Virus genome (UHGV): UHGV-1360036
Reading direction: 5' to 3' (one strand)
Length of the DNA stretch: 51,529 nt
From: a virus
The notes beneath the pieces were generated by a model that was not told where the DNA came from, ran no database searches, and saw only the letters and a list, made by a program, of their open reading frames with translations. Below, piece by piece: positions 791-36,224 of the stretch. The first letter of the stretch is position 1; the number at the start of each line of letters is the position of its first letter. The position numbers and the translations under genes were made by a program.

Positions 791-3700
791 ATGGCGGTTA
801 ATATGGGAACTGCTGTGGCATACTTGGAACTTGATTCTAGTAAGTTTCAAAAAGGGTTTAAATCCGCTTATAACGACCTAAAAGTTTTTGGGGATAAATC
901 AGCCACAGCAGAACAAAAGTTTAAAGGACTTTCCAGTGCCTTTGCTACAGTTGGAAGTACAATGTCAAGGAATGTAACATTGCCACTTGCAGGAGTAGGA
1001 GCGGCGGCACTTAAAGCAGGAACAGATTTTGAGAGTGCTATGTCACAAGTTGCCGCAACAATGGGAACAACAACAGATAAGATTCAAAACCTTTCAAAGT
1101 TCGCACAGCATATGGGTGCTACAACAGCGTTTAGCGCAACGCAAGCGGCAGAGGGGTTGAACGTATTAGCGCAGAGTGGATTAACAGCAGAAGAGCAAAT
1201 GCAAGCACTTCCAGAGGTATTAAACCTTGCGGCGGCTGGTAACTTAAGTTTGGCAGATTCTTCTACTTATGTTGTAGGAACATTAAAAGGCTTTGGAAAA
1301 GGAATGGATGAAGCAAAGCGTGTTACCGATTTAGTTGCTAAAGGAGCAACAATGGCGAACACAGATGTTAGAGGATTAGGAACAGCACTTTCTTCTTCAT
1401 CGGCAACAGCTAAGAGTTATGGACAGAACATGGACAGCGTAACATTAAGTTTGTTACGATTAGCAGAACAAAATGTAACAGGCGAAGAAGCGGCAACAGC
1501 ATTGAATAGAGCAATGATGGACTTGTATACTCCAACAAGTACAGCTAAGAAAGCACTTGACGAGTTAAAAGTATCTGTATACGATACACAAGGAAATGCA
1601 AGAGATTTCAATGATGTTGTAGATGAATTGAATGGTAAGTTGAGCGGAATGTCAGAAGAAGAACGAAACGCATATAAAAACACTATATTCACAACATATG
1701 GTTTGCAAGCGTTCAACAAAATGACAGTTTCATCAACAGAAAAAGTTAATGATTTTAAAGAGGGATTGAAAAATGCAAACGATTCTGCATTAAAACAAGC
1801 ACAAACACAGCTTGATAATTTAAAGGGTGATATAACACTTTTTAAATCAGCATTAGAGGGTGCGGGAATTGTTATATCAAATGTATTAATACCAAACATA
1901 AGAAACTTTATTCAGTGGCTTACGAATCTTGTAACAAAGTTCAATGAATTGTCAGAAGAACAACAGAATTTTATTGTAAAAGTGGGTCTTGTAATTGCCG
2001 CAATCGGTCCAGCTTTACTTATTCTATCAAAAGTGGCAAGCACAATAGGCACTATAATTACAGCTGTTAAAACAGCAAGTGGAGTTATTGGAAGTGTAAC
2101 AAAAACAATACAGCTTCTTAGTATGGGGCAATCTGAATTGATAGCAAGCATGGGTGGAATACCAAGCGTTATAACAAAAATCGCAACGACTTTTAGTTCG
2201 GTAATAGCACCAATTTTAGGAGTTGTTGCAGTTATTGGAACATTGGTTGCAATGTTTGTTACATTGTGGAAAACAAATGAAGGGTTTAGAAATAACATAA
2301 CAAGCACGTTTAATGAACTAAAGAAAACATTTTCAGATTTTGCGAATGAGTTTGTAAGTAAAATAAATGAGCTAGGTTTTAACTTTGAAAGTATAACAGA
2401 TGTAATTAAAACAGCATGGGAGACATTGTGTGATATATTTGCGCCAGTATTTGAGGGTGCTTTTTCTACGGTTGTAGATATTATACAGCTTGTTTTAAAT
2501 AACATTCTAAGCATAATGGATATATTCATTGGAATATTTACAGGAGATTTTGAACAAGTTGCAGATGGAATAAAAGGATTGTTTGACAATGTAGTTGAAA
2601 CATTTACAAGTATTGGAAGTACAATTCTAAGCACCATCGGAGATATTGGAGCGGAGATATTAGAGAAGTTCGGACTTGATGAAGCGGCACAGAAGTTTCA
2701 AGAGTTCTTTGACAAAGTGTCAGATATTTTTGGCAGACTTCCAGAGATTATTCTAGGAGCGTTTGATAGTGTTAAAACATTCTTTACAGAAACAATTCCA
2801 GAGGTATTTAACAATGCAGTTGAAACAATACAAGGTTTTGTTGACAATGTGATTAGTTTTTTTACAGAAACAATACCGAATGCATTTAATACTTTTGTGA
2901 ATGAAACAATACCAAACACAATAAATGCGATTGTAACATGGTTCAGTGAATTGCCTTATAAGATTGGTTATGTAATCGGTGAAATGTTAGGACATATATA
3001 TTTGTTTGGTCAATCTTGTATTGAATGGGCAACAACGGAGTTGCCAGTGATAATTGAAAATATTGTAACATGGTTTGCACAGCTACCAAGTAGGATATGG
3101 GAATGGTTGCTGAACACAATAAACAAAGTTATTGAGTGGGGTTCAAATATGTTACAAATCGGAATAGAAGCCGCTTCAAACTTTTTAACGAATGTAGTAC
3201 AGTGGTTTTCTCAACTACCAAGTAGAGTGTGGACATGGTTATCAAATACATTGAGCAAAATTATTTCATGGGGTTCACAGCTTGTACAAAGTGGAACAAG
3301 AACAGCTTCTAATTTTGTTTCAAGATTTATTTCATTTATGCAACAGTTACCTAGTAAGGTTTGGAGTATAGTATCACAGATACCTAGTAAAATACTTGCA
3401 ATAGGCGGTCAGATGTACAGTGCTGGTAGAAATATTCTGTCACAGCTGTGGAATGGATTAAAGAGTATAGGAAACAGCATCCTCGGATGGGTAAGCGATT
3501 TTGCTGGGAAGATTGGAAGTTTTGTTAGTGGGATTGTTAGTGGATTCAAGAATGTTGTGAGTGGTGCAAATGAAGCAAAGTCAGCCGCAAGAAGTGTAAA
3601 TGGTAAACATGCAAATGGTTTGGATTATGTACCTTTTAATGGATATGTAGCAGAGTTACATAAAGGAGAAAGGGTATTGACAAAACAGGAGAATGAAGAG

Positions 3701-3826
3701 TATAATAACAGTAGAGGTAAAAATAGTAGTGGAGACACATTCAACTTCTACAATACAAAACCAAACGCATATGAGTATGCAAGACAAATGAAAAAAGCAA
3801 AAAGGGAGTTACTGTTAGGATTTTAA
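791..3826 (+). CDS. tail tape measure protein
   Basis: 1011 aa. Alpha-helical N-terminal part, central hydrophobic/transmembrane block, and C-terminal tandem repeats (WFxQLPSRVWxWLxNT...WGSxLxQ, three copies). Confidence 0.9.
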   Translation: MAVNMGTAVAYLELDSSKFQKGFKSAYNDLKVFGDKSATAEQKFKGLSSAFATVGSTMSRNVTLPLAGVGAAALKAGTDFESAMSQVAATMGTTTDKIQNLSKFAQHMGATTAFSATQAAEGLNVLAQSGLTAEEQMQALPEVLNLAAAGNLSLADSSTYVVGTLKGFGKGMDEAKRVTDLVAKGATMANTDVRGLGTALSSSSATAKSYGQNMDSVTLSLLRLAEQNVTGEEAATALNRAMMDLYTPTSTAKKALDELKVSVYDTQGNARDFNDVVDELNGKLSGMSEEERNAYKNTIFTTYGLQAFNKMTVSSTEKVNDFKEGLKNANDSALKQAQTQLDNLKGDITLFKSALEGAGIVISNVLIPNIRNFIQWLTNLVTKFNELSEEQQNFIVKVGLVIAAIGPALLILSKVASTIGTIITAVKTASGVIGSVTKTIQLLSMGQSELIASMGGIPSVITKIATTFSSVIAPILGVVAVIGTLVAMFVTLWKTNEGFRNNITSTFNELKKTFSDFANEFVSKINELGFNFESITDVIKTAWETLCDIFAPVFEGAFSTVVDIIQLVLNNILSIMDIFIGIFTGDFEQVADGIKGLFDNVVETFTSIGSTILSTIGDIGAEILEKFGLDEAAQKFQEFFDKVSDIFGRLPEIILGAFDSVKTFFTETIPEVFNNAVETIQGFVDNVISFFTETIPNAFNTFVNETIPNTINAIVTWFSELPYKIGYVIGEMLGHIYLFGQSCIEWATTELPVIIENIVTWFAQLPSRIWEWLLNTINKVIEWGSNMLQIGIEAASNFLTNVVQWFSQLPSRVWTWLSNTLSKIISWGSQLVQSGTRTASNFVSRFISFMQQLPSKVWSIVSQIPSKILAIGGQMYSAGRNILSQLWNGLKSIGNSILGWVSDFAGKIGSFVSGIVSGFKNVVSGANEAKSAARSVNGKHANGLDYVPFNGYVAELHKGERVLTKQENEEYNNSRGKNSSGDTFNFYNTKPNAYEYARQMKKAKRELLLGF

Positions 3827-13252: not shown

Positions 13253-13757
13253 GAGATTGTATGAAGCACAGCAAGAAAAAAAGAAGTTTGATGAATACTA
13301 CAATGAAGTTAGGAAGAAAGAACAGCTTGCAGTTACGAATTTTATGTTTACTAATCTACCAAAAGGAGAAGAAACATTTGACATTGAATTAAAAGATGGG
13401 ATGAACTATTATACAAACCATGTGAAACTTAAGGTAACAAAAGTTAGAAGAAAGAAGTTGACATGGAAGTTTGAAAAGTTAAAACAAAACATTTCAAAAC
13501 AGTTATACAAAACAGTTGTAAACAAAACATACAAAGTAAATGATATGGATGGACTCATTAAATATTTGAAAGAGTGTGGAGTAGATGCAAAGAAGTTCAA
13601 AAAGTTCATTGATGTTGAAGAAAGCATGGATGAAGCAGAATTAGATAGAATGTATGAAACAGGAAAGATAAGCAAAGAGGACAAAGCGCAGTTAGGAAAA
13701 TGCTGTGATGTTGAAATATCAGAGCCATATATTAAGATAACAGAACAGAAAGGCTAG
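13221..13757 (+). CDS. hypothetical protein
   Basis: 178-aa Lys-rich ORF. Overlaps the previous stop. Confidence 0.5.
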   Translation: MNTAQIEQSVRRLYEAQQEKKKFDEYYNEVRKKEQLAVTNFMFTNLPKGEETFDIELKDGMNYYTNHVKLKVTKVRRKKLTWKFEKLKQNISKQLYKTVVNKTYKVNDMDGLIKYLKECGVDAKKFKKFIDVEESMDEAELDRMYETGKISKEDKAQLGKCCDVEISEPYIKITEQKG

Positions 13758-13767
13758 AACAATATGT

Positions 13768-14730
13768 ATGATAAGAACATATGGAGGAAAGGAACTTGCG
13801 AAAGTATTAATCTATTATGGAATTGTTGAAGAAATAACAACAACAGAGTTTAATATAATATGTCCTTTCCATGATGATATAAACCCATCAATGCGAATCT
13901 GTTTAGATGATGGAACATTTTTTTGTTTTGGATGTGAAGCAAAAGGAAATGCATTAGATTTTGTTATGAAAGCGCATCCAGAATTAAATGATTTACAGGC
14001 ATGTTGTTTATTGGAACAAATACTGCATAGTGATAAAATAGAAAAGCTACAGATAAAGGTTAGAAGAAAACGTAAGAAACAAAGCAAGCAAGCATTGATT
14101 GAAGCAAAGGATTATTACTATGGATTAAAAACAACAGATTGGAATGAAGCAAACAGTAAGGATGAAAAACAAATAATTGAATACATGAAAAAACGTGGAT
14201 TCAGTAAACGTGCATTGAATGTTTCAAAGTGTAAATACAATTACAATGTTGCATATCCATTTATATTTCCAATATTGGACAATGGAAAGTTTATGGGATG
14301 GGTAGGAAGAACAATGAATCCACATGTTGAAAAGAAAAGAAAGTATCTATACAATGAGGGATTCAGAAAGCGTGACACATTATGCGGAACATATGAAGAG
14401 AACTGCATTCCATATATATGTGAGGGATACATGGATTATTTAAGTCTTAAAACAAGAGGGCATATAAAAAATGTTGTTGCAATACTTGGATGGCATATAT
14501 CAGATGAACAAGTGAACAAACTAAAACAAAAAGGAATTACAACAGTAATATCTGCATTAGACAATGATGAATGTGGAATAAAAGGAACAGAGTATTTAAA
14601 GCGGTTTTTTAATGTTATACGCTTTGATTATCCAGCTGATAAAAAGGATGTGGGGGAAATGTCAGAGGAAGAAATAAAAGCCGCTAAACAGTGTTCTAGG
14701 AGGATCAGAAAGCATGGTGCTGAAATATAA
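13768..14730 (+). CDS. DNA primase (CHC2 zinc finger + Toprim)
   Basis: CPFHDDINPSMRI...FFCFGCEAKGNALDF zinc finger. C-terminal EGYMDYLSL...ALDNDECG Toprim-like. Confidence 0.75.
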   Translation: MIRTYGGKELAKVLIYYGIVEEITTTEFNIICPFHDDINPSMRICLDDGTFFCFGCEAKGNALDFVMKAHPELNDLQACCLLEQILHSDKIEKLQIKVRRKRKKQSKQALIEAKDYYYGLKTTDWNEANSKDEKQIIEYMKKRGFSKRALNVSKCKYNYNVAYPFIFPILDNGKFMGWVGRTMNPHVEKKRKYLYNEGFRKRDTLCGTYEENCIPYICEGYMDYLSLKTRGHIKNVVAILGWHISDEQVNKLKQKGITTVISALDNDECGIKGTEYLKRFFNVIRFDYPADKKDVGEMSEEEIKAAKQCSRRIRKHGAEI

Positions 14731-15914: not shown

Positions 15915-15936
15915 AACAAAATAAGTTATGTGTTAG

Positions 15937-15968
15937 GGGTTGACATAGTTCAACCCTTTTGTTATAAT
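15937..15968 (+). promoter_or_regulatory. second copy of hairpin terminator/promoter element
   Basis: GGGTTGA-catagt-TCAACCC-TTTT. -35 TTGACA at 15940-15945, 17-nt spacer, -10 TATAAT at 15963-15968. Confidence 0.6.
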
Positions 15969-16002: not shown

Positions 16003-17196
16003 ATGGGAAATTTTTTCGATTTACATAGGCACACAGAATATTCATTATTTGATGGGTTTGGAAAGTCTATAAATTTAGCAAAACATGCAAAGGAGTTAGG
16101 ATACAGAGCATTAGGGATAAGTGACCATGGAACAATTAGTGGACTTATAAAACATTATCAAGCATGTAATGAAGTTGGAATAAAACCGGTTATGGGATGC
16201 GAAATATATTTTCAACCAAAATTCAATAAAGAAAATCCAAAAAGAAAGAGTTACCACTTGAATTTGTTTGTGAAGAACTTGCAAGGATACAAAAATTTAT
16301 GTCACATTATGACAGAAGCAAACACAAAACAATTCTATTATAAACCAATAGTTGATTTTAAGTTACTTGAAAAATATTCAGATGGTCTTATATGTACAAC
16401 AGCTTGTATAGCAAGCGCAACGTCACAAGCTATTTTAAATGGTCATAGAAGTACAGCAGAGCGTTTGTTAGATAAGTTCAAGGAAATATTCAAAGATGAT
16501 TTATACGTTGAAATACAGCCATATAAGATAGATGCACAGGGTACACAGCAAAGAACAGATTATGAGCTTATGGGAATGGCTAGAAGAAAGAAAATAAAAT
16601 GTATTCTAACAAGTGATTCACATTTTGGAAGTAAAGAAGATTTTGACACATATTGTAAAATGCACGAAATTGGAAAAACAACATTGGATGTAAAAAGAAC
16701 ATATAGTGAAAGGTACATGCCTACAGAATATGAGATAACAGAACGGTTTGCGAACATCTATAAAAAGAAGTTTAAAAGACCAATGGAACTTGCAGAACGA
16801 TTTGCAGATAACATGAAAGAAATATATAATAAAGTAGAAGATAACATATTGGATGGCTTGGAGTTGGAACTTCCTAAAATATCAGATGATGGAGCAAAAC
16901 AACTTGAAACATTAACAAAACAGGGATTGAAGAAAAGAAACAAATGGAATAAGGAATATTGGAAAAGATGTAAAGAAGAATTGGAAGTAATTAATTACCA
17001 TGGGTTTGCAGACTATTTCCTTATTGTTAGAGATTACATAACATGGGCGAAAGAAAATGGAATTGAAACAGGAAAGGGAAGAGGTTCTGTATGTAATTGC
17101 CTTGTAGCTTATGCAGTAGGAATTACAGAAGTAGACAGTATAAAATATAATCTAGATTTTAGTAGATTTATGAGAAAGGAAAAGAAGTCATTGCCT
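16003..17196 (+). CDS. DNA polymerase III alpha (DnaE-type) exon 1: PHP domain and start of palm
   Basis: FDLHRHTEYSLFDG PHP motif. GRGSVCNCLVAYAVGITEVD and FSRFMRKEKKSLP align to DnaE GRGSAAGSLVAYALGIT...FERFLNPERVSMP. The ORF-track ORF runs on to a stop at 17232 inside the intron. Confidence 0.75.
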
Positions 17197-18020
17197 AAAC
17201 TTAATTGGGAATCATTCGTGAACATTGCTTAATGGTGTGTATTATTATAATATGCTAACGGTATCAGAAAAATAAGACTCCTTATTGAAATGTTACAACA
17301 AGATAATAGGGCATAAGACCATAGACGAATAATCTGACTAAGAAACCCTAAACCAGTGACGGTGAGATAGAGGGAATACCGTGCCAAGTCTATATAGAAA
17401 GGAAGTGAATTAGATGTTTAAAAGTATGGAAGAGTTTGACCATCATTCAATAGACGAATATGGAAATGTTTTAAATGAGAAAACAGGAAATATATTAAAA
17501 CCTTATGTTGGAAGTGGCGGCTATTTGTATGTGAAGCCATGCGAAAATAATGTAACAAAACATTTGTCGATACATAGAGCAGTAGCAAAATATTTTTGCA
17601 AAGGATATAAACCAGAATTAGTTGTTGACCACATAGATGGAAATGTAGAGAACAACTATTATAAAAATCTTAGATGGTGCGAACAAGCAGACAATTTGAA
17701 GTATGGATATGAGAGAAGAAAAGATACACCATTCAGAAATTATAGACCATGTAAATTGTATGTTGGAAATAAATTGATAGATGAATTTCTAAGTATAACG
17801 GAAGCTGTGGAATATGCAGAAAAACACTACAATGTTAAAAGAACAATGTTACATAAACATCTAGTTTATGGAAATGTTCGTATAGAAAGGTGTAACGACT
17901 AGTTTGTGAAGAGAGTAACAAGTGTAGGAATGGAGATAAGCACCATTCCGAAGTGCGAATGCCACGAGAGTGGAAGATATAGTCTAGCCTTGATAGTTTG
18001 GAAACGAACGACTAAGGTAG
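17197..18020 (+). mobile_element. putative group I self-splicing intron with an HNH homing endonuclease gene
   Basis: Separates two DnaE halves exactly at the catalytic DxD motif. 5' exon ends in U, intron ends in G. Possible P1 pairing of exon CCU with intron GGG at 17207-17209. Confidence 0.6.
17414..17902 (+). CDS. HNH homing endonuclease (intron-encoded)
   Basis: HLSIHRAVAKYF...VVDHIDGNVENNYYKNLRWCEQADN HNH motif. Free-standing ORF inside the intron. Confidence 0.7.
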   Translation: MFKSMEEFDHHSIDEYGNVLNEKTGNILKPYVGSGGYLYVKPCENNVTKHLSIHRAVAKYFCKGYKPELVVDHIDGNVENNYYKNLRWCEQADNLKYGYERRKDTPFRNYRPCKLYVGNKLIDEFLSITEAVEYAEKHYNVKRTMLHKHLVYGNVRIERCND

Positions 18021-19547
18021 GATATTGACTTAGACTTCGAGCGAGATAGGAGACAGGAAGTAATTGACTATGTTATAAACAAATATCCAAACAAAGCAAT
18101 ACAGATTTGTTCTTATGGAATGTATGGAGTTGATAACCTTGTGAATGATTTGGCTAGTGTCTGTAATTTGAAAACAACAAAAGATGTTGATTGGTTTGAA
18201 GCAGATGAAAATAAAAAAGTGATTGCAGAAATTAAGTCATATATTAAGGGATTCATAGTAGATGATGAACTGAACATGAGTAACTTATTGAATGGATACA
18301 GAACAGAAGAGTTTAATGAAAGATATGATAACATTATAAAACATTTCTCAAAACTTTATGGTAAAATAAAGTATCTTGGAAAACATGCGGCTGGGGTTGC
18401 TGTGGTTGGAACAGATATAAGTGATTATACTTGTATTATTATGAGAGATAGAAAGACAGGAGCATTAAGCAGTTGTTTTGACAAAGATGATTTAGAGCAT
18501 ATTAATTGTGTAAAATTTGATATGCTTGGACTTAAAACAATGTCAGAAATGCGTGAGCTTAGAGAGAAAACAGGGCATACAATAACAGAAGAAGATGAAG
18601 AAAGTAAAGAGGTTATAGAGGGATTTAGAGAGGGAAGAACAGACGGAATATTTCAGATGGAGAAGTCAGCACCTAAAAAGATTCTTGATATGATTCAGTG
18701 TGATTGTATAAATGATATTATAGCGGTGAATGCATTAAACAGACCAGCACCATTACAGTTGCACATGCATGAAACATATGCACATAATAAACTTTCTGAT
18801 AAAGTAGATAAGAACACACCATACTACAAATATACACAAGAAACATATGGAACAATGTTATATCAAGAACAAACAGTTGAAGTAGCACAGAAAGTTGGAC
18901 ACTTAACACCACAGCAAAGTTTTGATATGTTAAAGATTATGAAGAAAGCGGAAAACTTAACAAAACCAGAATACGTTCCAATTATTGAACAAATGAAGAA
19001 AGATTTCTATAGAGGATGCAGACAAGAGGGATTGACGAAAGAACAAACAAATAACATATGGGCGAGTATGTTAATCTATGGTTTCAACAAGGGGCACTCA
19101 ACCGGCTATGCGTTAATAAGTATAGATCAGATGTTTTACAAAGTACATTACCCAACACAGTTTTGGTATGTTAAAATGAAGTATGCAGATAATGATGCAG
19201 ATATATTCAAATATTCACAGTTTGCGGTAAAAGATGGTGCTGTGGTTATGTTACCACATGTAAACTATTCAGCTAAAACTTCATTGCGTAAAATGGATGG
19301 AGAAGACGTTATACAGCAAGGGTTGAGTATTATTAAGGGTATCGGAGAAAAAGCCGCAGAAACCATTGAAAACGAGCGCAGAAAGGGTGTATTTAAATCA
19401 TATGACGATTTCTATGACAGATGTAAAGGAAGAAGTGTTACAACAAGAGTGATTGATATTCTGAAAGAACAGGGTGCACTTGAATTTAACAAAAACAAAT
19501 ATATGAGCAGAGTAGTAAAATATAATAGCACATTAATGGCGAGGTAG
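18021..19547 (+). CDS. DNA polymerase III alpha (DnaE-type) exon 2
   Basis: In-frame reading directly after the stop at 18018-18020 gives DIDLDFERDRRQEVIDYVINKY (DnaE PDIDIDF...RDEVIEYV). GKHAAGVAVVG, KFDMLGLKT, GIFQMEK and ALNRPAP are DnaE fingers/palm motifs. Confidence 0.75.
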   Translation, partial: DIDLDFERDRRQEVIDYVINKYPNKAIQICSYGMYGVDNLVNDLASVCNLKTTKDVDWFEADENKKVIAEIKSYIKGFIVDDELNMSNLLNGYRTEEFNERYDNIIKHFSKLYGKIKYLGKHAAGVAVVGTDISDYTCIIMRDRKTGALSSCFDKDDLEHINCVKFDMLGLKTMSEMRELREKTGHTITEEDEESKEVIEGFREGRTDGIFQMEKSAPKKILDMIQCDCINDIIAVNALNRPAPLQLHMHETYAHNKLSDKVDKNTPYYKYTQETYGTMLYQEQTVEVAQKVGHLTPQQSFDMLKIMKKAENLTKPEYVPIIEQMKKDFYRGCRQEGLTKEQTNNIWASMLIYGFNKGHSTGYALISIDQMFYKVHYPTQFWYVKMKYADNDADIFKYSQFAVKDGAVVMLPHVNYSAKTSLRKMDGEDVIQQGLSIIKGIGEKAAETIENERRKGVFKSYDDFYDRCKGRSVTTRVIDILKEQGALEFNKNKYMSRVVKYNSTLMAR

Positions 19548-20974: not shown

Positions 20975-21832
20975 ATGGGAATCATAGACGATATTAAAAA
21001 GGATGCAGACAAAACATTTACAAAAGTACAAAGTACACAAGAAAAAGAAATAGAACAGATGCTGAATGGTTTATTTTATTTAGACAAGGATATTCCAAAA
21101 GAATTGAAATTCCTTAAAAGTGTAATGACAAGGGGAGCAGAAACAACAGAAAGAAAAGGACTACATGCAAGTGCTGTAATTGTATCAGATGATAAGTTCT
21201 GCATACGACAGCAAGTATTAAGTTTATTCTATAAACAATTACAAGGAGAACAAGTTCCAGTAGGTTTAAGGAGAATATTCAGTGAGGGTGATGCAATACA
21301 TGAGAAGTGGCAAAGGCTATTTATTAGGGGTGGCTTGTGTAAGCCTCTAGATTGCGATTATAGCCGTTTTGCAGAAGAGTTTGACTTATCATACACCCCA
21401 GATATAATATGTGAAATACCGGCAGATTACAGGCTTGAAAGCGTATATGATGATAGTGTGGAAAAGATACCGTATATTGTAGAAATCAAAAGTGTAAATA
21501 CATTTACATTTAAAAAACAAAAGTACCATGCAAGTGGAAGAAAGCAATGCCAGCTTTATATGTATTTAACAGGAATACACCATGGAATAGTTCTGTGTGA
21601 TGATAAAAACACACAGGAATTTAAAGTATACCATTATGAATATAATCCGAGTGAAATTGCACAATACATTGGAAGATTGGAAAGAATACAGGAAAGTAAA
21701 ACAAAGCTACTAGAACAAAACAAACTTGTAAAAAGGCATAAGAAATGCACAGGATATAATTGTAAGATGGCAGAAGAATGCAACATGAAAGATGTATGCT
21801 ATGGAAAAGCAAAAGAAAGGCTATCTAATTAA
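20975..21832 (+). CDS. PD-(D/E)XK exonuclease, Cas4/RecB-like with C-terminal Cys cluster
   Basis: DIICEI...YIVEIKSV D/E-x-K motif. C-terminal CTGYNCKMAEECNMKDVC. Confidence 0.55.
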   Translation: MGIIDDIKKDADKTFTKVQSTQEKEIEQMLNGLFYLDKDIPKELKFLKSVMTRGAETTERKGLHASAVIVSDDKFCIRQQVLSLFYKQLQGEQVPVGLRRIFSEGDAIHEKWQRLFIRGGLCKPLDCDYSRFAEEFDLSYTPDIICEIPADYRLESVYDDSVEKIPYIVEIKSVNTFTFKKQKYHASGRKQCQLYMYLTGIHHGIVLCDDKNTQEFKVYHYEYNPSEIAQYIGRLERIQESKTKLLEQNKLVKRHKKCTGYNCKMAEECNMKDVCYGKAKERLSN

Positions 21833-35869: not shown

Positions 35870-35992
35870 GACAATATGACAGGTGTTAAAGTCATTAAAA
35901 CACAGGCATGATACAAAGAGGTGTCTTGATTTATTGTAGTTCGTAGGCTGTGAACTCTCCCATCATATAAAATAAATTCACAGTCTACACAT

Positions 35993-36064
35993 TGCCTAGT
36001 CGCCAAACGGTAAGGCGGAGGACTTTGACTCCTTAATGTGTTGGTTCGAGTCCAACCTAGGCAG
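35993..36064 (+). tRNA. tRNA-Gln (anticodon UUG)
   Basis: Hand-folded cloverleaf. Acceptor TGCCTAG/CTAGGCA, D arm GCC/GGC, anticodon arm GAGGA-CTTTGAC-TCCTT, T arm GTTGG-TTCGAGT-CCAAC. Confidence 0.7.
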
Positions 36065-36152
36065 TTGCACACTATAAAATGTGTGCAAACCAAATTTCTT
36101 TTCTTGCTAAAGTGTTGTGAGTAGTGTTCAAGCGCATGAAAGCAACACATAA

Positions 36153-36224
36153 GGACTATTAGTTCATTGGTAGAACAATCGTCTCATAAGCGAAGAGTAA
36201 TAGGTTCGATTCCTATATAGTCCA
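36153..36224 (+). tRNA. tRNA-Met/Ile2 (anticodon CAU)
   Basis: Acceptor GGACTAT/ATAGTCC, D arm GTTC/GAAC, anticodon loop CTCATAA, T arm ATAGG-TTCGATT-CCTAT. One mismatch in the anticodon stem. Confidence 0.6.

Follow-up and report, generated by a model that had tools for sequence, protein, structure and literature searches.

The virus genome UHGV-1360036, analysed here as a single window of 51,529 nucleotides (nt), contains a DnaE-type (family C, Pol III alpha) replicative polymerase gene that is split by an insert of 824 nt (17197-18020). The insert contains an open reading frame (ORF) of its own and very probably is a group I intron that carries a homing endonuclease gene. The main features of the locus are the following:

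16003 to 17196, + strand: dnaE exon 1, 398 codons; PHP domain and first part of the palm; last codon CCU (Pro398)
17197 to 18020, + strand: predicted group I intron, IA2-like, 824 nt, with terminal G (omega-G) at 18020
17414 to 17902, + strand: intron ORF, predicted I-HmuI-like HNH homing endonuclease, 162 amino acids
18021 to 19547, + strand: dnaE exon 2, 508 codons and a stop; catalytic DID first, then the remaining palm, fingers and HhH

The reading frame 16003-17232 encodes a PHP domain (Pfam PF02811, E 1e-44) followed by positions 2-102 of the DNA_pol3_alpha profile. The frame that begins at 18021 translates as DIDLDFERDRRQ..., takes up the same profile at positions 103-260 and continues into the finger and HhH domains, so that the Pfam matches in the host gene are PHP, DNA_pol3_alpha, DNA_pol3_finger and HHH_6. 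The junction divides DNA_pol3_alpha between positions 102 and 103, and PHROG 405 between 443 and 444. The last base of exon 1 is T17196, the insert ends with G18020, and 18021 is the first base of exon 2. When 16003-17196 and 18021-19547 are joined, a single open frame of 906 amino acids results (907 codons with the stop), and the spliced junction would read ...TTGCCT^GATATTGAC..., where the caret marks the insertion point. The joined protein aligns with E. coli Pol III alpha (PDB 2HNH) without a gap across the junction (SLP^DIDLDF against SMP^DFDVDF). The insertion point lies between codons Pro398 and Asp399, equivalent to E. coli P400 and D401, directly 5' of the first catalytic aspartate codon. 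D399 and D401 of the window align with D401 and D403, the two catalytic aspartates of the E. coli enzyme, and KFDMLGL aligns with KFDFLGL, a motif (FD(F/M)LGL) that we take to hold E. coli D555. By its PHP domain, palm with catalytic aspartates, fingers and HhH, the predicted product is a C-family polymerase.

To examine relatives of the gene, IMG/VR was scanned with the joined protein, and the junction was inspected by tblastn in the 57 loci obtained. The gene is uninterrupted across the junction in 28 related loci, many of them with the whole 2718-nt gene. Three of these alleles (L003, L004 and L040) share 97-98% amino acid identity with the window product over the full 906 residues, and in L004 the insertion site reads ...AAGAAGTCGTTGCCG^GATATCGATCTT.... 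The dnaE gene of Dulem virus 36 (PP511521) is also continuous at this point. At the identical codon boundary, 16 IMG/VR loci carry inserts of 823/824, 770, 656, 438, 343/344 or 262 nt, and Clostridium phage CS266P4 (OP172778) has an 842-nt insert at the same dnaE position. Because these 28 loci are uninterrupted and 17 loci besides the window have an insert at the identical position, a chance origin of the insert is excluded. Profile splits and uninterrupted alleles both place the boundaries exactly where the initial annotation had put them (exon 1 ending at U17196, an 824-nt insert ending in G18020, exon 2 from 18021). Its assignment of ORF 16003-17232 to a PHP domain and palm start is confirmed by the Pfam matches, and that of the block behind the TAG at 18018-18020 to the catalytic DxD by the translation from 18021 and the alignment to 2HNH. 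The alignment of the spliced product to DnaE that it proposed is the gapless one described above. The continuous polymerase that it predicted also stands, with a length of 906 amino acids instead of 907, the latter figure counting the stop.

Two in-frame stops close the insert to translation from either side. Beyond the junction, the exon 1 frame runs for only 11 codons before TAA (17230-17232), the codon preceding exon 2 is TAG (18018-18020), and the first in-frame start in exon 2 is ATG 18120, 33 codons past the DID. Since TAG precedes the DID and the next start is at 18120, no product would hold the catalytic aspartates without splicing. This arrangement bears on the possibility, also raised by the initial annotation, that the insert is never removed from the RNA and that the two halves are made as separate polypeptides which assemble into a split polymerase. 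GenBank records of phages CS266P1-4 and of Enterococcus phage EF1 do contain two separate coding sequences (CDS), and an in-frame ATG, GTG or TTG following GAGGG forms the 3' end of the intron in many relatives. In the window, however, neither fragment would contain the catalytic aspartates, and for this genome the alternative is excluded by the DID lying behind a stop with no start before 18120. A split polymerase would, moreover, leave unexplained the RNA covariation and the rules of a U at position -1 and a terminal G that are described later in the text. Overall, we consider this explanation very improbable.

The start codons at intron 3' ends merit a separate description. An in-frame ATG, GTG or TTG follows a Shine-Dalgarno-like GAGGG at the end of the intron in L001 (4071-4073), L045, L054, L066 and L079, as well as in L082, L087, L089-L091 and L095, while the window has TAG instead. 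It is because of this in-frame start codon after GAGGG that GenBank CDS start at intron ends. Such a codon could permit translation of a C-terminal polymerase fragment from unspliced RNA, or it may merely be a preference of the 3' end, since the td intron of phage T4 also ends in AUG.

The ORF inside the insert, at 17414-17902, is preceded by a Shine-Dalgarno-like AAGGAAG (17399-17405). Its product is homologous to the endonuclease I-HmuI (PDB 1U3E; phmmer E 4.5e-15), with ORF residues 9-97 aligned to I-HmuI residues 11-99. The HNH motif (DH...N...N) of the ORF, VVDHIDGNVENNYYKNLRW, aligns with VVDHKDGNKDNNLSTNLRW of I-HmuI. The product also matches Pfam HNH_3 (31.5 bits against a cut-off of 24.8) and PHROG 59, in agreement with the HNH gene that the initial annotation had placed here. 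A NUMOD1-like motif, SITEAVEYAEKHYNVKRTML, can be discerned by eye in the C-terminal part. Phages and metagenomes do contain HNH genes that stand free between gene fragments, as well as 'fractured genes' with split inteins (PMC2677866). The rival readings considered were such a free-standing gene, an intein, a fractured gene with split inteins and a group II intron. The insert is out of frame and interrupted by the two stops, there is no Pfam match to Hint or intein domains, and the Pfam matches of the ORF include no reverse transcriptase. In addition, inserts without any ORF (262-344 nt) persist at the same site with conserved RNA helices. Any explanation of this group is hardly conceivable.

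The RNA fold was deduced by comparative analysis of 22 distinct introns. Whole-length MAFFT alignment misaligned the variable hairpins, and an anchor-trimmed alignment (A4) was used in its place, in which helix strands were cut at fixed sequence anchors and aligned without gaps. The predicted elements of the window intron are as follows, with family-wide figures where pairs were counted:

17191 to 17212, + strand: P1 hairpin; exon UUGCCU (17191-17196) and AA (17197-17198) against guide UUGGGAAU (17205-17212)
17202 to 17206, + strand: P10 guide segment UAAUU, which can pair with the start of exon 2 (18021-18025)
17213 to 17220, + strand: P3 5' strand CAUUCGUG, pairing with 17954-17961 in a pseudoknot with P7
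17223 to 17234, + strand: hairpin X1 (CAUU-GCUU-AAUG) in the P3-P4 interval; 97% paired, 3 of 4 pairs compensatory
17237 to 17255, + strand: hairpin X2 in the P3-P4 interval, then J3/4 UAA; 100% paired, 3 of 5 pairs compensatory
17258 to 17263, + strand: P4 5' strand ACGGUA, pairing with UACCGU (17377-17382); aligns with td ACGGGG/UCCCGU
17264 to 17376, + strand: P5 with a long extension; family length range 15-111 nt
17383 to 17394, + strand: P6 5' strand GCC, AAG, and P6a 5' strand UCUAUA; P6 helix variants C-G, U-A and G-C
17881 to 17901, + strand: P6a 3' strand (17881-17886), P6 3' strand (17889-17891), J6/7 GUA and P7 5' strand A-(C bulge)-GACUA (17895-17901)
17903 to 17922, + strand: P7.1 hairpin; 95% paired, all 3 counted pairs compensatory
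17927 to 17949, + strand: P7.2 hairpin GGAAUGG, loop AGAUAAGCA, CCAUUCC; 97% paired, 6 of 7 pairs compensatory
17954 to 17961, + strand: P3 3' strand UGCGAAUG, identified by P3 covariation
17962 to 17973, + strand: P8 hairpin CCAC-GAGA-GUGG; all 4 pairs with compensatory variants
17974 to 17985, + strand: J8/7 AAGAUA and P7 3' strand UAGUCU (classical S element)
17987 to 18020, + strand: P9 GCCUU/AAGGU around a GAAA-tetraloop hairpin, then A and G18020; from a minimum-free-energy fold

The structure that was counted comprised P1, P10, P3 (as a pseudoknot), X1, X2, P4, P6, P7, P7.1, P7.2 and P8. Standard pairs occupy 94.0% of its 1254 cells, and sliding the 3' partners by 1-3 columns lowers this share to 35-49%. 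Likewise, 38 of the 57 pairs are changed on both sides (11-20 with slid partners), and the covariation score is 0.484 (0.08-0.11 with slid partners). None of 500 shuffles matched any of the five observed measures. P3 is paired in 95% of cells with 6 of 8 pairs changed on both sides, and it occurs in four or more distinct complementary versions across the family. P10 is paired in 87% of cells family-wide, and P8 in only 72% under the fixed anchor rule. P7 and five of the six P4 pairs are invariant, and thus uninformative alone, but they are identical to td, as is the motif UAACGACUA (17893-17901). The P6 strand GCC pairs with GGU (17889-17891) and P6a UCUAUA (17389-17394) with UAUAGA (17881-17886). 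The ORF lies in the loop that P6a closes, and relatives lacking the ORF fold into the same GCC-AAG-stem-AA-GGU arrangement.

The splice sites show the same regularity. A U-G wobble, U17196-G17207 in the window, marks the 5' splice site in 22/22 introns, and compensatory changes between exon and guide affect 5/6 P1 pairs (UUGCCU/GGGCAA, UUACCU/GGGUAA, UUCCCU/GGGGAU and ACGCCU/GGGCGU), the altered forms being found in CS266P4, L084, L085 and L095. The last codon of exon 1 is CCT in all 18 insert-bearing alleles, the window counted, whereas 25 of the 28 intron-less alleles have CCA, CCG or CCC at the junction codon, i.e. mostly lack a U there. At the 3' end, a terminal G directly precedes GAT (Asp) in every unique family member. 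The pairing of CCU (17194-17196) with GGG (17207-17209), put forward in the initial annotation as a candidate P1, is part of this covarying helix.

Other assignments were tried and rejected. The segment CUGACUAAG near 17335 had been read as the P7 5' strand, a reading that put the ORF into the P8 loop; it lies in the variable P5 extension, and ORF-less relatives identify the conserved UAACGACUA at 17893-17901 as the true R element. Readings of ACGGUAU/AUACCGU as P3 and GUUGC/GCUAAC as P4 were discarded by comparison with the td Q element (AAUCCCGUGCUAAA against AAUACCGUGCCAAG) and are also ruled out by the covariation of 17213-17220 with 17954-17961.

The P5 extension measures 111 nt in the window and 15-30 nt in minimal relatives. 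Some of its motifs (AAUAAGAC, GACGAA, CUGACUAAGAGA and CCUAAG...AUAG) are conserved with distant members, and they resemble a module of the tetraloop-receptor type, to which the GAAA loop of P9 could dock.

A scan with the Rfam group I model had been proposed in the initial annotation. No match was obtained for the window at the gathering threshold, for the insert or either of its halves at E<=10, or for four loci with ORF-less inserts at E<=1. As a control, the T4-type td intron was searched in the same way. The td intron of T4 itself is a classic self-splicing intron, and the T4-type td locus used, L083, matches the td 5' sequence at 100%. The td intron of L083 likewise went undetected by Rfam 15 at E<=10 in a 9-kb search. 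Since the library also misses td, the negative result is uninformative for this subgroup and the proposed scan cannot decide the question; introns of the phage IA2 type appear to fall outside the Rfam 15 group I model. We then built a covariance model (R1) solely from the P7-to-P7' segment of this intron family (alignment A5). With a calibration that is rough, R1 matched the T-even nrdD intron (L097; 55 bits, E 1.3e-9), the T4-type td intron (33.6 bits, E 5.6e-5) and the Streptococcus thermophilus phage lysin intron (L096; 23.3 bits, E 0.009), and it gave no match in intron-less alleles. In the window it found one intron copy only; a weak match at 21118-21202 (13 bits, E 1.4) is attributed to chance.

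Taken together, a U-G pair at the splice site, an omega-G, a catalytic core and a colinear gene after excision identify the insert, at the level of sequence, as a group I intron. The order P7-P7.1-P7.2-P3'-P8 and the homology to nrdD and td place it in the IA2 type. We consider it very probable that it is related to the td and nrdD introns of T4 and to the lysin intron of an S. thermophilus phage; the covariation in 22 introns and the R1 matches to nrdD and td uphold the group-I-like character claimed initially.

Several points weigh against this interpretation. Splicing of the dnaE intron is inferred from DNA comparisons, and all the Rfam searches listed above were negative. The anchors of alignment A4 were picked after the helices had been seen, so the counts lean somewhat towards the structure, and the P7.1 register in five sequences was chosen by complementarity. 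Hairpins X1 and X2 occupy the P3-P4 interval, which is free of hairpins in T-even introns. Residues 98-162 of the ORF product, its last 65, where an I-HmuI-like enzyme would have its helix-turn-helix DNA-binding module, have no significant alignment to 1U3E and no Pfam match. Finally, P1 of the window copy is weakened: its guide reads GGGAAU, as compared with GGGCAU in all near-identical relatives, and the resulting mismatch of A17210 with G17193 is found in the window copy only, among the 22 introns compared. A17210 reduces P1 from 7 to 5 contiguous pairs and its stability to -3.5 kcal/mol, against -8.0 in the nearest relatives. This substitution may make splicing less efficient, or it may reflect an error in the sequence.

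The same observation raises the possibility that the insert is a group I intron by descent whose window copy splices poorly or not at all, unless A17210 stems from an error in sequencing or assembly; if splicing did fail, the genome would make little or no active polymerase. The window is the sole one of 22 introns with a non-pair at exon position -4 and guide position 4, its P1 stability is 4.5 kcal/mol lower, and P10 has just 3/5 pairs in the window lineage. However, five contiguous P1 pairs remain, including the U-G wobble, and td works with four exon pairs (GGGU/GCCU), as read from the T4-type td sequence. Furthermore, the two exons are intact, as are the ORF and all remaining core helices, and the remainder of the 51.5-kb window has the appearance of a complete phage genome. 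Poor splicing of this copy thus seems improbable, and a functional group I intron is the reading that we retain.

The ORF and the ribozyme of this predicted intron overlap. The stop codon UAG (17900-17902) falls within the P7 5' strand, and the last codons (Cys-Asn-Asp-stop) are the J6/7-P7 core, an overlap that is kept in most HNH-bearing relatives, including the distant CS266P4 and L066/L084. Because of this sharing, translation of the ORF and folding of the ribozyme should be mutually exclusive on one RNA. Relatives also present a series of ORF loss, from 162 amino acids intact, through an in-frame deletion to 106 (L036) and a 53-residue remnant (L047), to none, with a clean hairpin replacing the ORF in L037, L054 and others.

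In a single metagenome, alleles with and without the intron occur interleaved, with 91-95% nucleotide identity. The flank GAAGTCATTGCCT^GATATTGA is common to the eight closely related intron-plus alleles compared, the window among them, and intron-minus alleles have CCA or CCG^GATATC at the junction. The shared flank and the interleaving form the pattern that homing with co-conversion would leave.

Scans of DNA for the core pattern revealed this RNA in additional contigs of viral and metagenomic origin, nearly all at the ..LP^D(I/V)D.. site of DnaE, where the family now amounts to dozens of contigs. Distant DnaE carriers include contigs of 157-165 kb and Enterococcus phage EF1, and blastn with the intron core showed that six deposited phage records, four from Clostridium and two from Enterococcus phages, carry it. 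The word 'rare' in the initial annotation is too strong, since the intron family occupies this DnaE site in dozens of contigs and six deposited phages, one of which labels it a phage intron. Among the 1195 deposited phage records with a DnaE-like gene, the tblastn rows sampled were continuous at the junction except for CS266P1. The core-pattern scan of 185,579 bacterial and archaeal genomes gave no match, and hence no prophage or host clue.

Two family members reside in nrdD genes and have a different guide sequence (L064, about 13440-14260; L080, about 3530-3810). Both keep the same core, including X1/X2, P7.1 and P7.2; the intron of L064 contains a GIY-YIG ORF instead of HNH, and that of L080 has no ORF. 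Because the same core carries HNH, GIY-YIG or no ORF, the intron RNA and the endonuclease gene seem to move independently.

A second, unrelated insert was noticed in the dnaE gene of some relatives, between codons 757 and 758 (FNKGH^STGY; about 18021+1074 of the window), and is absent from the window. It is located at 4461-5612 of L002 (Dulem virus 36), 4975-5319 of L049 and 5612-6750 of L050, and has classical group I Q/R-like motifs (GGGUAAUCAGCAGUCAAG and GAUUCAGAGAACAUAAUGG). The form that lacks an ORF measures 345 nt, and the one with an ORF of 266 residues about 1140 nt.

Comparison with T-even introns reveals the same order of P7, P7.1, P7.2, P3', P8 and P7', and an ORF that runs into P7. 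In the 3' half, td has UAACGACUA, GUAGG, CGAAAC and GAGAUAUAGUCU in the same order as the window intron. T-even nrdD resembles the window intron in having no P2, whereas td has one. On the other hand, P1, P3 and P4 are directly consecutive in T-even nrdD, while the window adds X1 and X2 before the J3/4 UAA; td carries the GIY-YIG endonuclease I-TevI where HNH is found here, and the P5 extension is long in the window intron. The S. thermophilus lysin intron shares the arrangement P3, X1, X2, UAA, P4 and the Q/R motifs, but its host gene encodes an endolysin and its ORF lies downstream of P8, as opposed to P6a here. ORF-deletion derivatives of this lysin intron, together with its splicing in vivo, have reportedly been described, and they parallel the ORF-decay series of the family studied here. 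As the lysin intron has the same two hairpins, X1/X2 is a trait of the lineage and not unique to the window locus. The lysin-gene group I intron of S. thermophilus phages was the subject of an earlier study (Foley, Bruttin and Brussow 2000, J Virol 74:611, as cited in PMC6409932).

A close deposited parallel is that of Enterococcus phages EF1 and EF5 (MF001358, MF001361), in which a member of this intron family occupies the homologous DnaE site (..ELP^DVD..) and has an HNH ORF in the same loop. The EF1 GenBank record lists two 'DNA polymerase III alpha subunit' CDS and, placed between them, an 'HNH homing endonuclease # Phage intron'. These phages differ from the window in their size of roughly 142 kb and their distant DnaE, and the record is limited to CDS, giving neither splice sites nor an RNA structure.

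Group I introns with HNH endonucleases in phage polymerase genes are known since SPO1, in the accounts given in PMC2814812 and PMC7409376, and are mentioned in many genome papers (e.g. PMC6409932). In Bacillus phages SPO1 and SP82, such an intron with I-HmuI/I-HmuII interrupts the DNA polymerase gene (Goodrich-Blair et al. 1990, as presented in PMC2814812 and PMC7409376). The window resembles this system in a phage of low-GC Gram-positive hosts, a polymerase-gene group I intron at a conserved catalytic-region site and an HNH endonuclease. The SPO1 host gene, however, belongs to family A (Pol I-type), whereas that of the window belongs to family C (DnaE) with the DxD motif as its site, and the likeness described here is that of the gene setting and the endonuclease. 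A review mentions self-splicing introns in the polymerase gene of phage G without detail (PMC7824862). Our literature search found no paper on a group I intron in a phage DnaE gene, nor on the RNA of this intron family. In its kind, the element is a familiar selfish one that would not surprise a specialist in mobile introns.

The genes that neighbour dnaE encode a primase, an SSB-like protein, a nucleotide-kinase-like protein, a UvsX-like recombinase and a Cas4-domain exonuclease. Upstream of dnaE lies one further feature:

15940 to 15968, + strand: sigma-70-type promoter-like site (TTGACA, 17 nt, TG-TATAAT; 12/12 matches), 35 nt upstream of the dnaE start

This site is a consensus match only, and the total of such sites in the region does not exceed the shuffled expectation. 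At 15935-15968, the extended -10 sigma-70 consensus overlaps a terminator-like hairpin directly upstream of dnaE. No terminator-like site was found inside the intron, and the upstream consensus site, the neighbouring genes and the terminator-free intron are consistent with a single transcript. Elsewhere in the window, two tRNA genes are present on the + strand, tRNA-Gln(UUG) at 35992-36065 and tRNA-Met(CAU) at 36153-36224.

In the mechanism that we propose, the dnaE exons and the intron would be transcribed as one pre-mRNA, and the intron would fold into a core of P3-P8 and P4-P6. Free guanosine, bound at a G-C pair of P7, would attack after U17196, which the guide GGG(A)AU holds in a U-G wobble; the terminal G18020 would then serve exon ligation, and only the ligated mRNA would encode the active 906-residue polymerase. 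By analogy with I-HmuI, the putative endonuclease would nick those alleles of co-infecting relatives that have no intron, and the intron would be copied into them during repair (homing).

It is also conceivable, if doubtful, that the family constitutes an undescribed structural lineage of phage IA2-like introns, defined by the lack of P2, two covarying hairpins between the P3 5' strand and J3/4, and a specialization for the DxD codon. This lineage would have spread to very distant phages (of about 50 kb and related to Clostridium-host isolates, of 142 kb in Enterococcus, and the contigs of 157-165 kb), and would have moved to nrdD by a change of the guide sequence alone. A reason for doubt is that X1/X2 are also present in the S. 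thermophilus lysin intron and may already have been drawn in 2000.

For annotation, these results mean that the dnaE halves and the HNH gene should be joined as one intron-containing gene; in the deposited relatives CS266P1-4, these products are labelled hypothetical proteins. As regards search tools, Rfam 15 misses the whole class, including td, and a model for introns of the phage IA2 type could be started from the 22-sequence alignment. The family provides a natural series of one homing element at one site, with intron-less, full, ORF-decayed and ORF-less states, many of them from a single metagenome. The element targets the codon of a catalytic aspartate in a polymerase that is essential, in keeping with the rule that the most conserved sites are the ones to which homing elements are directed.

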